A stretch of DNA of 36,784 nt from Candidatus Binatia bacterium (GTDB lineage: Bacteria > Desulfobacterota > Binatia > Bin18), in the NCBI GenBank assembly GCA_041487975.1, contig JBGPOI010000003.1, positions 1 to 36,784 on the forward strand. Direction: 5' to 3'. The notes under the pieces are model-generated. The model saw nothing but the letters and a program-made list of their open reading frames with translations. It did no database searches and had not been told where the DNA came from. The stretch's first letter is position 1. Every line of letters starts with the position of its first letter. Positions 32,165 to 35,750 of the stretch are shown one piece after another. Made by a program: the position numbers and the translations under genes.

Positions 32165-34084
32165 GTGCTTGAATTCATGCGCCGCCGCACGCGATCATCG
32201 GTAATTAAAGTTTTATTTTCTATTATCGTCCTGGTGTTCATTTTCTGGGGAGTGGGCGGACCCGTGAGCGGCAACCGGCCCGACGTGATTGCCAACATCA
32301 ATGGGCAACCGATTTCGTATAAAGAATTTCAACGCGCTTACGGAAACGTCAAGGCAACGTATCGCGACGCATACAAAGATCGTCTCACTCCCGAAATTTT
32401 GCAGATGTTGAACTTAAAAGAACAGACCCTCGACCAACTCGTCAATGCCAAACTCATGGAAGGAGAAGCACGACGGCTGAGATTCTCCGTCGATGACGAC
32501 GAAATACGACAGGCGATTGCCGCCATGCCGGTTTTTCAGACGGAGGGGAAATTCAATCAGACGCAATACGCCCGGGTCCTTCGCTTCTACCAGGCAACCC
32601 CAGGCGAATTTGAAGAGGAACAGCGCGCACAACTGTTGAGAAAGAAACTCGAGTCCTTAATGAGTAATGCCCCGCAGGTCACCGATGACGAGGCTCAGGA
32701 TCTTTTTCGCCTGGCTGCCGAGAAGGTAAACCTGTCTTTCGTCAGCGTGGCCTCGGCCGACTTGTTGCCTAAGGGCACGATCGAGAAAAAAGAAACCGAG
32801 GAATTTTACAACACACATCGTGAGTCTTTTCGTCAACCCGAACGGGTCCGTTTCGCGTACGTCGCCTACCCCGCGGCGCACTTTACCTCCCAGGTACAGA
32901 TTTCCGACGAGGCCATAGCCGAGGTCTACAACGACAACAAAGACACACGCTTTACAACCTCCGCCCGCGTCCAGGCTCGACACATTTTATTTTCCCTCTC
33001 TGCCGATGCTTCAGCGGAAGACAGAGAGAAAGCTCGCACCACTGCGAGTGAGGTCCTTCAGCGCGCGCGCGCTGGGGAGGACTTTGCCACCTTGGCCAAG
33101 GCATACTCCCAGGATACCGCGACCGCGGGCAAGGGAGGAGACCTGGGAACTTTCGCGCGCGGCCGCATGGTGAAACCGTTCGAAGAGGCCGCCTTCAATC
33201 TGCCCGCGGGCGGCATCAGCGACCCGGTCGAAACTCCCTTCGGCCTCCACCTCATCAAGGTCGAGGAAGTGCTGCCCGCGCAAGCGCGCCCACTCGACGA
33301 AGTCAAAGAAGAAATCCGCCAGGAACTCGTGCAAGCGCGCGCGCGCGACTTGGCTAGCGAGCGTGTCCGGGCAGACCGGAGCAAAATGCAGAACGGCACT
33401 TCCCTGGCTGAGGTCGCCCAGGCCGCAGGCCTCACTGTCGTGGAAACTCCGCTGGTGGCACGAGACGAGACCTTGCCTGACTTGGGGCGGCAACCGACCC
33501 TGATTGAGGCCGTTTTCGGCTTGTCGCCGCAACAAGTGAGCGAGCCTGTGCAAGTGCAAGACACGTGGTATCTGCTTTCCCTGCGTGAGAAGGTGCCCTC
33601 CGCAATTCCAGACTTTGCGACCGTTGCTGAAGAGGCAGAGAAACGCTGGAAGAGCGACAAAGCCGAACAGTTGGCGCAGGAAAAAGCTAATGCGCTGTTG
33701 GCGCGGGTGAAAGAAACTAAGGACTTGGCCGCCGTCGCGGCGCAAGAACATTTGAAGGTCGAAGAAACCGGCCCATTTACGCGGCAAGGCGGCTATATCC
33801 CCAAGATCGGCAGCTTGGCGGATTTGAAAAAAGCCGCGTTTCGTCTGACCAGCGAGGCGCCAGTTATCCCTCAGACATACCTGTGGGGAGGAAACGCATT
33901 TGTCGCAGTCCTGAAAGAGCGGGTCCCGCCCAGGCCGGAAGAGTTTGAGAAAAAGAAAGCCGCGCTACGAGAGGAATTCCTCAAACGCAAACAGGATATA
34001 GTAGTAGACGAATTCGTGCGCTACTTGAAGCAGCGCGCTACCATCACTTACAATCAGGACGTGTTGCAGAAAATCCCAGGCTAG
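32165..34084 (+). CDS. ppiD: PpiD/SurA-like membrane-anchored peptidyl-prolyl isomerase
   Basis: MLEFMRR..TM anchor, SurA-N-like region and parvulin motifs ARHIL, FATLAKAYSQD, GGDLG, MVKPFE, PVETPFGLHLIKV. Confidence 0.88.
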   Translation: MLEFMRRRTRSSVIKVLFSIIVLVFIFWGVGGPVSGNRPDVIANINGQPISYKEFQRAYGNVKATYRDAYKDRLTPEILQMLNLKEQTLDQLVNAKLMEGEARRLRFSVDDDEIRQAIAAMPVFQTEGKFNQTQYARVLRFYQATPGEFEEEQRAQLLRKKLESLMSNAPQVTDDEAQDLFRLAAEKVNLSFVSVASADLLPKGTIEKKETEEFYNTHRESFRQPERVRFAYVAYPAAHFTSQVQISDEAIAEVYNDNKDTRFTTSARVQARHILFSLSADASAEDREKARTTASEVLQRARAGEDFATLAKAYSQDTATAGKGGDLGTFARGRMVKPFEEAAFNLPAGGISDPVETPFGLHLIKVEEVLPAQARPLDEVKEEIRQELVQARARDLASERVRADRSKMQNGTSLAEVAQAAGLTVVETPLVARDETLPDLGRQPTLIEAVFGLSPQQVSEPVQVQDTWYLLSLREKVPSAIPDFATVAEEAEKRWKSDKAEQLAQEKANALLARVKETKDLAAVAAQEHLKVEETGPFTRQGGYIPKIGSLADLKKAAFRLTSEAPVIPQTYLWGGNAFVAVLKERVPPRPEEFEKKKAALREEFLKRKQDIVVDEFVRYLKQRATITYNQDVLQKIPG

Positions 34085-34095
34085 AGAGGAGGCCG

Positions 34096-34545
34096 ATGAC
34101 GATGCTGAAAGCTGGCGATACCGCCCCTGAATTCATCGTGCAAACGCACGACGGGAAAGATCTCTCGCTTGCAAGCCTGCGCGGGAAAAAGGTCCTGCTA
34201 TGGTTTTACCCCAAAGCGGACACCCCAGGCTGAACTACGGAAGGCCGCGGGTTCCGCGACCAGATTGCCGATTTTCGTGCGCAGAATGTAGAAGTACTCG
34301 GAGTGAGTTTCGATACGGTGGCGGAAAACGCCGCTTTCGCGCAAAAATTCAGCTTTCCCTTCCCCCTCTTGTGTGACACCACTCGCGCGGTCGGCCTCGC
34401 CTATGGCGCCTGCGACAATGCCAAGGCCGGCTACGCTAAACGGATCAGTTACCTCATCGACGAACAGGGACAGATCCTCAAGGCCTACGATGCGGTCACG
34501 CCCCGTAGCCATCCGGCGGAAGTGCTGGCGGATTTGCTGGCGTAA
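34096..34545 (+). CDS. bcp: peroxiredoxin BCP/PrxQ family, selenocysteine-containing (149 aa)
   Basis: GAGGAGG RBS; MTMLKAGDTAPEF..LRGKKVLLWFYPKADTPG-U(TGA 34231-34233)-TTEGRGFRD..VLGVSFD..FPFPLLCD..RISYLIDEQGQI, in one frame across the TGA. Confidence 0.9.
34243..34261 (+). promoter_or_regulatory. candidate bacterial SECIS hairpin
   Basis: GG-C-CGCGG-[GTT]-CCGCG-A-CC. The apical loop starts with G and has 17 nt between it and the TGA. Confidence 0.7.
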
Positions 34546-34549
34546 AATC

Positions 34550-34581
34550 CTGGAGGGGTGACCGGCCGGTCGCCTCTCCAG
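34550..34581. terminator. GC-rich hairpin between convergent bcp and larC
   Basis: CTGGAGGGGTGACC-GGCC-GGTCGCCTCTCCAG, a 14-bp stem with two G-T pairs and no U-tract. Confidence 0.5.
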
Positions 34582-34586
34582 TCCTC

Positions 34587-35750
34587 TCACAACTCCCGGG
34601 CGCTTTTCGTCGCCGCCTCATAGACCAGTTTGAGCGGCACGTCTTGGTCTCGCGCTAAACGTTTACAGTCTTCATACTCCGGCGCGACGTTAACCCGGCC
34701 GTCAGGGCCGTACGCGAGTTTCACCCGCACGCTGCCGTAGGGAGTGACAACTTCTCGGCTCTCGCGGCGCAAGGCGACACGCGCGACCGGATACGAACGA
34801 ATACCAAGCGTCGAGGTCTCGGCGAAAAGAATCGCACTTAATTTATCACTATTAGTGATTTCTCCCAGCACCCACAGCAGCACGCCCGGCCGGTTCTTTT
34901 TCATCTGGATCGGCGCGAGAAACACGTCGCGCGCACCGGCAGCGAACAACCGCTCCATCACATGCTCATATAACTCGGGGTTCAGGTCGTCAATATTCGT
35001 CTCCAGCACAAGCAGTTGTTCTTCTCGCGGGGTTTCACTCGTGCTGCCAAGGAGCACTCGCAGGAGATTAGGCCGGTCAGGTAAAGTGCGCTCACCCGCG
35101 CCGTAGCCGACCGCGGTTAATTGTAATTGCGGTACGGCCTCGTGCTGCGCTACGGCCACAACGATTGCTGCACCCGTCGGTGTGACCATCTCCGCACCGC
35201 CGTCTTCGAGGCGTACCGGCCACCCTCTCAGTAATTCCACGGTCGCCGGTCCTGGGATCGGCAGCACGCCATGGCGCGAGGGCACTAACCCCTTCCCCAT
35301 CGGCAAGGCCGAGGCATAGACTTTTTCAATCCCCAACGCGTGCAGACCAAAGGCAGCGCCGACGATATCTACGATCGAATCGACTGCGCCCACTTCATGA
35401 AAATGTACGGCCTCGACAGCAACGCCATGAACCCGGCCCTCAGCCTCGGCCAGGACCGTAAAGATACGCAGGGCAGTTTCCTTCACCCGGGGGATCAGGT
35501 CGCTCTCCCGCAGCATGCGCGCAATAGCGCGAAAGCTACGTTCCCCCAGTGGCTCGCTCACCTCGACATCAAACTTGGTAGCACGGATGCCGCTCAACTT
35601 CCGTTCCGTCTGACTCAATTGATAGCCTGAGAGCGGCAGCTTCGCGAGTTCTGCGCGTAAAGCATCCAGTGAAACCCCTAAGTGCAGCAACGCGCCAACT
35701 GTCATATCACCGCTCAAGCCCGAAAAGGCGTCAAAATAGGCGATTTTCAT
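34587..35750 (-). CDS. larC: nickel-pincer cofactor biosynthesis protein LarC
   Basis: MKIAYFDAFSGLSGDMTVGALL, AEGRVHG..VHFHEVGAVDSIVDIVG, HG.LP.P.PAT, TPTGAAI, ETNIDD, MKKNRPG and PEYED. Confidence 0.95.
   Translation of the reverse strand: MKIAYFDAFSGLSGDMTVGALLHLGVSLDALRAELAKLPLSGYQLSQTERKLSGIRATKFDVEVSEPLGERSFRAIARMLRESDLIPRVKETALRIFTVLAEAEGRVHGVAVEAVHFHEVGAVDSIVDIVGAAFGLHALGIEKVYASALPMGKGLVPSRHGVLPIPGPATVELLRGWPVRLEDGGAEMVTPTGAAIVVAVAQHEAVPQLQLTAVGYGAGERTLPDRPNLLRVLLGSTSETPREEQLLVLETNIDDLNPELYEHVMERLFAAGARDVFLAPIQMKKNRPGVLLWVLGEITNSDKLSAILFAETSTLGIRSYPVARVALRRESREVVTPYGSVRVKLAYGPDGRVNVAPEYEDCKRLARDQDVPLKLVYEAATKSAREL

Follow-up and report, generated by a model that had tools for sequence, protein, structure and literature searches.

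Can a gene with TGA at the codon for the peroxidatic residue, which standard gene calling splits into two fragments, encode a peroxiredoxin (Prx), and how would such an enzyme be recycled where arginine occupies the position of the usual resolving cysteine? The question is raised by a locus of Candidatus Binatia bacterium found in the window, i.e., the whole stretch of 36,784 nucleotides that was analyzed (contig JBGPOI010000003.1). An earlier note, made from the letters of the window, had read positions 34096–34545 as a selenocysteine (Sec) peroxiredoxin of the BCP/PrxQ type, missed by the ORF caller and apparently lacking the usual resolving Cys. The best explanation of the locus, which we hold with high confidence, is a single gene for a BCP/PrxQ thiol/selenol peroxidase, in which a hairpin would direct the recoding of UGA to selenocysteine (U46) and an external thiol would recycle the oxidized Sec. 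The reading of the codon, the assignment of the protein, the recycling route, and the constraint that the hairpin may place on the protein are considered below together with the explanations that compete with them.

The gene occupies positions 34096–34545 of the + strand, ends with a TAA stop codon (34543–34545, + strand), and encodes 149 amino acids from the ATG at 34096 or 147 amino acids from the ATG at 34102. A GGAGG ribosome-binding site (34088–34092, + strand) lies 3 nt 5′ of the first ATG and 9 nt 5′ of the second, and the second is the likelier start because of this 9-nt spacing and because most orthologues begin at the aligned Met (M3). Under translation table 11, the region yields two ORFs, one of 45 amino acids (34096–34233, ending in ..FYPKADTPG followed by TGA) and one of 80 amino acids (34303–34545), i.e., the gene is split by standard ORF calling. 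When TGA is translated as U, 34096–34545 gives 149 residues with a single U at position 46 (..WFYPKADTPG-U-TTEGRGFRDQ..), and the frame continues downstream as an AhpC/TSA-type peroxiredoxin, as the earlier note had described. The TGA (34231–34233, + strand) corresponds to the peroxidatic residue of the motif P39-x3-T43-x2-U46 and is aligned with the Cys of the Cys-form homologues. The three other residues singled out at the outset are likewise present in the translation: R51, encoded by CGC (34246–34248, + strand) at the +5 position that holds the resolving Cys of CxxxxC-type BCPs; C93 of LLCD, encoded by TGT (34372–34374, + strand); and C106 of GACD, encoded by TGC (34411–34413, + strand). 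The upstream neighbor is a SurA-N/rotamase (PpiD-like) gene (32165–34084, + strand) that ends 11 nt before the ATG at 34096, and the downstream neighbor is a convergent gene for the nickel-insertion protein LarC (PF01969; 34587–35813, – strand). Among the best 80 related loci, a SurA/PpiD-like gene is found upstream in 27 and LarC downstream in 24; a functional tie of the peroxiredoxin to these neighbors was considered and rejected, as the pattern resembles lineage synteny with no evident link.

The protein matches Pfam AhpC-TSA (PF00578) over profile positions 2–121 of 124 with 118 bits (cut-off, 26; E = 3.1e-34) and Redoxin with E = 6.1e-22. Within NCBIfam, the protein comes closest to Bcp (PRK09437), with 114.6 bits against a cut-off of 140, and to PrxQ-Dein, with 96.4 bits against 260, and no NCBIfam equivalog cut-off is reached; the protein is a member of the BCP class but not an orthologue of the modeled Escherichia coli or Deinococcus proteins. 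The two selenoprotein models also score below their cut-offs, i.e., PrxU (NF040737) with 55.3 bits against 270 and Prx-SUH (NF045827) with 27.7 bits against 298. With a 40-sequence alignment (A1) as input, AlphaFold2 gave a model that has a pLDDT of 96.5 and a pTM of 0.91 and places U46, R51, and R54 in helix α2 (residues 44–55), C93 at the end of strand β5, and C106 in the loop past helix α4. The top Foldseek matches of this model in the PDB are all peroxiredoxins, and by sequence as well as by fold the best are BCP/PrxQ structures, with AhpE and Prx1 ranking lower. These structures, namely Xanthomonas campestris PrxQ (5iiz/3gkk), Sulfolobus Bcp1 (3drn), Mycobacterium tuberculosis BcpB (5epf), and a Burkholderia protein (5enu), share with the window protein the fold (TM 0.86–0.92) and the PxxxTxxC/R residues (E, 1e-22 to 1e-16), whereas the window protein is 28–35% identical to them, has Sec in place of Cys, lacks the α2 and α3 Cys, and adds C93 and C106. 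The active site comprises P39, T43, and U46, and P39, T43, and R116 are invariant in the 40 sequences of alignment A1. On profile matches and predicted fold, the protein is thus assigned to the BCP/PrxQ subclass of AhpC/TSA peroxiredoxins.

According to the proposed mechanism, SelB and Sec-tRNA(Sec) would recognize the hairpin at 34243–34261 and insert Sec at U46; with activation by T43 and R116, Sec46 would then reduce peroxide and be converted to a selenenic acid; finally, the oxidized Sec46 would return to its reduced state through direct action of an external thiol (such as thioredoxin, glutaredoxin, or a small thiol), i.e., by a "1-Sec" mechanism. Sec insertion itself, peroxidase activity, and the recycling route are all inferred, and for the R51 form the 1-Sec cycle with an external thiol appears the most likely because neither of the intramolecular resolving positions known for this class has a Cys, α2 having R51 and α3 having A82. 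The latter residue is aligned with C84 of Xanthomonas PrxQ, and Cys is found at this position in none of the 225 rows of the family set. The earlier note was therefore right that the usual resolving Cys is missing at +5. Arg at +5 is nevertheless not unusual, since 59 of the 119 Cys forms in the 225-row set also lack the +5 Cys (52 of the 59 having Arg), and the approximately 50 CxxxxC forms among the Cys-form homologues in the 120 matches listed are accompanied by approximately 47 CxxxxR forms. According to the figures in PMC4749874, a resolving Cys is present in only approximately two thirds of the PrxQ class (approximately 60% in α2 and approximately 6% in α3) and is absent from about one third. 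The window protein resembles such 1-Cys PrxQ members in the absence of the α2/α3 resolving Cys and differs from them in having Sec as the peroxidatic residue.

Among the competing explanations, the one that survives best concerns this last step: after oxidation, Sec46 might become linked to C106 or C93 in an intramolecular selenenylsulfide, to be reduced in turn by thioredoxin. This route, which lies outside the five known resolving positions, is regarded as rather unlikely, though it has evidence to be weighed. Both residues are well conserved, with Cys at the C106 and C93 positions in 92% and 88% of the 225 family rows, respectively, and the general BCPs in the PDB alignments have Cys at neither. 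Furthermore, C106 is lost in six of the eight Sec forms with a +5 Cys (UxxxxC) as against 4 of the 98 Sec forms that lack it, as would be expected if C106 were dispensable where a +5 Cys is available. However, these losses are confined to a few related Acidobacteriota loci and amount to a hint only. The two residues are equally common in the CxxxxC Cys forms, of which 47 of 60 have both, so that they do not behave as a substitute for the +5 Cys, and a comparison of six supported independent pairs shows no coupling of the +5 Cys with C106 or C93 (median p = 1). In the AlphaFold2 model, moreover, the locations of C106 and C93 both fall outside α2, α3, α5, and the termini, i.e., the positions given in PMC4749874. 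Recycling of Sec46 by an external thiol accordingly remains the preferred reading. The presence of Sec itself was also compared with the state of the +5 position: a FastTree phylogeny of the 225 rows has approximately 20 Sec/Cys changes and 13 Cys/non-Cys changes at +5, and among nine supported independent pairs, a median of seven were unchanged, two changed in the expected direction, and none in the opposite direction (p ~0.5), so that coupling of Sec with loss of the +5 Cys was not shown in these pairs.

The hairpin on which the recoding would depend spans 34243–34261 on the + strand. It begins 9 nt past the UGA and comprises an 8-pair stem and a GUU loop (34251–34253) that begins 18 nt past the UGA. 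The consensus spacing and the loop rule for bacterial SECIS elements are those of the bSECISearch literature, and the placement of a G-loop hairpin at SECIS distance agrees with the original observation. The description of the stem as perfect needs to be narrowed: the hairpin is real and does include the CGC codon of R51, but only the 5-bp core (CGCGG, 34246–34250; CCGCG, 34254–34258) is perfect, and the full 8-pair stem contains one C·A mismatch (34245/34259), the window reading GGC at a codon that is GGT in most orthologues. A scan of 33900–34700 against Rfam at E <= 10 gave no matches, and a corresponding family of bacterial SECIS elements is absent from Rfam.

Folding of the single sequence was dropped as support for a SECIS element. 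The 66-nt fold has a z-score of –0.02, and when the peptide is recoded synonymously 2000 times, 7.7% of the variants form the 19-nt hairpin equally well or better and 67% fold equally well by the 54-nt minimum free energy; the stretch Gly-Arg-Gly-Phe-Arg-Asp in common GC-rich codons is self-complementary. Comparative support is used instead. A perfect 8-bp stem, GGUCGCGG-GUU-CCGCGACC, is found in 40 of the 77 distinct Sec sequences, and 61 of the 77 have at least seven of the eight pairs, with 15 sharing the pair-3 mismatch of the window; among 13 distinct Cys-form sequences, none has the perfect stem and one has seven of the eight pairs. Over all 77 Sec sequences, taken without selection, 88.3% of the cells pair, as against 28.6–50.5% in controls with the 3′ arm shifted by 1–3 columns. 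Variation within the stem is mostly of the G·U wobble kind and both sides change in only two of the eight pairs; this thin classical covariation is as expected because the stem falls inside conserved codons. The main stem is absent from those Sec forms in which +5 is K, N, S, or I, and these have a shifted hairpin (GGAUUC-7 nt-GAAUCC), for which compensatory GGGCUC/GAGCCC variants are seen among approximately 12–16 sequences without the main hairpin. As a general feature of the family, this shifted "type-2" hairpin (columns 19–24/32–37) was tried and rejected, since 62.1% of cells pair over the 77 Sec sequences as against 59.7% at a slide of –1.

A bacterial SECIS located within the coding region constrains the sequence downstream of the Sec codon. 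Codon use was counted over the 69 distinct sequences with the main hairpin, a set that was picked by pairing and is thus biased at the stem codons, the loop position lying outside that criterion. The loop position is the clearest case: the Gly codon at +6, which supplies the loop G with its third base, reads GGG in 69 of 69. Within the stem, Gly at +4 is encoded by GGT in 52 of 67 (giving a U-A pair), Arg at +5 by CGC/CGT in 60 of 60, Phe at +7 by TTC in 67 of 69, and Arg at +8 by CGC/CGT in 53 of 53, whereas the invariant residues just upstream (P–7, T–3, P–2, and G–1) each use all four codons. The synonymous sites within the conserved hairpin thus appear almost frozen. At the amino acid level, the +5 codon over the 69 hairpin-bearing orthologues is CGC/CGT in 60, TGC in eight, and CAT in one, giving Arg, Cys, and His, respectively, and +8 is Arg in 53 and Cys in 16; among relatives of the same family and in the closest sister genomes, +5 is Arg, with His in one. 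To judge from these counts, the hairpin limits codons +5 and +8 to YGY, i.e., to Arg or Cys only. A protein-level preference at +5 is inseparable from this RNA effect because the Cys-form homologues likewise mostly have Cys or Arg there.

The eight UxxxxC Sec orthologues, which come from other taxa (L105, L108, L111, L119, L121, L126, L127, and L128) have TGC at +5 and the same hairpin, in which the C-G pair becomes a U·G wobble, and the stem is thereby kept. The earlier proposal that RNA structure constrains the protein sequence is consequently borne out in part, by the synonymous freezing and the restriction to YGY at +5 and +8, although Arg itself is not imposed, as the UxxxxC orthologues demonstrate. 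As a separate observation, one Binatia group has Cys in place of Arg at +8 (UTIEGRGFCDQ; CGC to TGC), two helical turns from the Sec, with the hairpin kept through a G·U pair (loci L034, L035, L038, L055–L058, L060, L061, L063–L065, L067, L069, L070, L073, and L076). A broader and more speculative proposal, which we consider doubtful, is that the SECIS (codons +4 to +10) channels the evolution of the redox helix, so that +5 moves between Arg and Cys without loss of Sec, a new Cys is gained at +8, a change of +5 to K, N, S, or I requires the shifted hairpin, and in forms with Arg at +5 the conserved C106 (or C93) might serve as a sixth resolving position.

The TGA is widely conserved. Orthologues with an in-frame TGA at the Sec46 codon (66–89% identical) are present in 21 of 24 same-family genomes, no close orthologue being found in the remaining three; TGA is also present in one same-order and one same-class genome, and farther members of the class are Cys forms. 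Among the best 80 loci of other species, which were drawn from contigs with one genome per species, 72 have TGA and eight have TGC/TGT at the same codon, and by their record titles these other-species loci span Candidatus Binatia, several Acidobacteriota classes, Myxococcota, Krumholzibacteriia, and Eisenbacteria. Over all 109 parsed orthologous loci, 95 have TGA and 14 have TGC/TGT at this codon; in the Cys/Sec ortholog alignment, TGA is thus aligned with the Cys codon, and the orthologs are by no means all TGC/TGT, the case in which the earlier note would have seen a nonsense mutation or an error. Three sets of irregular loci were encountered. In locus L040 (G011:C4:163033–163476), another TGA occurs in frame at the site of R138 (..SVSTU SHPTEV..), which represents either an error or a truncation by roughly a dozen residues. 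Locus L045 (G014:C1:3055452–3055887) is matched in two pieces (residues 3–38 and 30–148) in different frames and looks frameshifted 5′ of the active site, with the TGA still kept. Furthermore, the MAG records of L050, L053, L090, L096, L102, and L124 are labeled Enterobacteriaceae, Klebsiella pneumoniae, or Clostridia; the orthologues in these records share 59–83% identity with the window protein, L050 and L053 have an upstream PpiD-like gene, and the labels look like wrong or placeholder taxonomy.

The machinery for Sec insertion is encoded in the host genome, whose assembly is 89% complete and comprises 669 contigs. A tRNA-Sec with anticodon UCA (ARAGORN; Rfam RF01852, 69.9 bits; cut-off, 47) adjoins selA, and selA (591.7 bits), selB (388.1 bits), and selD (374.6 bits) each score above their family cut-offs. 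The genes named in the earlier note as needed for Sec insertion, i.e., selA, selB, selD, and tRNA-Sec (selC), were accordingly all found. The selD gene, which lies outside the window (G000:C83:6348–7274, + strand) directly 3′ of selB (C83:4332–6221), itself contains one in-frame TGA, implying that selenophosphate synthetase is a selenoprotein in this genome. Elsewhere in the genome and likewise beyond the window, another AhpC/TSA-like frame containing a single in-frame TGA was observed (G000:C68:10176–10571, + strand); it is 37% identical to the window protein over residues 4–131, has TGA counterparts in many related genomes, and is probably another Prx-like selenoprotein. Many more Prx-like frames with TGA are present in relatives, and the host lineage looks selenoprotein-rich.

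Two further explanations of the TGA carry next to no weight. The first, a nonsense mutation or sequencing error in a decaying Cys-peroxiredoxin pseudogene, would account for the two fragments obtained with table 11, but is opposed by TGA at the same codon in those 95 of 109 parsed loci, which cover many genera and phyla, are 59–89% identical, and have an intact downstream frame, as well as by the complete Sec machinery and the conserved hairpin with its frozen synonymous sites. The second, a reading of TGA by the organism as a standard amino acid (Trp or Gly, as in codes 4/25), could draw on the W found at the active site in 11 of the 120 homologues listed, but most of these W entries come from short contigs and they resemble artefacts of gene calling, peroxiredoxin chemistry would be lost with Trp or Gly as the peroxidatic residue, and more long frames end in TGA than in either other stop codon, both within the window (16 of 26 frames) and genome-wide (974 of 2335), so that global reassignment is excluded and the recoding must be local. 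Recoding of the UGA at 34231–34233 to selenocysteine is hence the reading to which the comparative data point. Pfam profile, fold, conserved TGA, comparative hairpin, and Sec machinery all agree with a Sec-containing peroxiredoxin of the BCP/PrxQ type with a SECIS-type hairpin, as had been proposed.

How the protein relates to known selenoproteins can be stated from published descriptions. It shares with the Sec-Prx family (TxxU; PF00578/COG1225, the latter of which we take to be Bcp) the same Pfam family, the T-x-x-U motif, a coding-region SECIS, and widespread Cys homologues, and it differs in coming from Candidatus Binatia. PrxU of Eubacterium acidaminophilum, reportedly shown by biochemical means to be a Sec-peroxiredoxin (Sohling and coworkers, 2001), also has Sec at the peroxidatic position but belongs to a different Prx subclass, and the window protein is not a PrxU orthologue because its score falls so far below the NF040737 cut-off (55.3 bits against 270). 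For the Sec-Prx family, Table 1 of the Sargasso Sea survey gives 43 sequences under COG1225 (PMC1088965), Table 2 of the GOS survey gives 253 sequences under PF00578 (PMC2398784), and a bacterial genome survey reports 12 Prx members with five independent Cys-to-Sec events (PMC1794560); a 2026 review includes the Sec-Prx family with the motif PxxxTxxU and cites the work on PrxU (PMC13188914). A literature search on Binatia selenoproteins found no relevant paper, and a search on selenocysteine in bacterioferritin comigratory protein/PrxQ found nothing specific to Sec BCP. The window gene is an ordinary additional member of a Sec-peroxiredoxin family that has been known for approximately twenty years.

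The Binatia Sec-peroxiredoxin opens no new question, as coding constraint by a SECIS is textbook knowledge; it does provide a clean example of a coding-region SECIS that freezes synonymous sites and narrows two codons of the redox helix to Arg/Cys. Eleven public entries (P0002, P0010, and nine others) have W at the peroxidatic position, evidently because TGA was translated as Trp by the gene caller. With the soil/groundwater lineage Candidatus Binatia, a further host joins those of the Sec-peroxiredoxin family, and since standard callers split the gene and others write W, inventories of peroxide defence in Binatia and Acidobacteriota MAGs will be expected to undercount Sec-peroxiredoxin.
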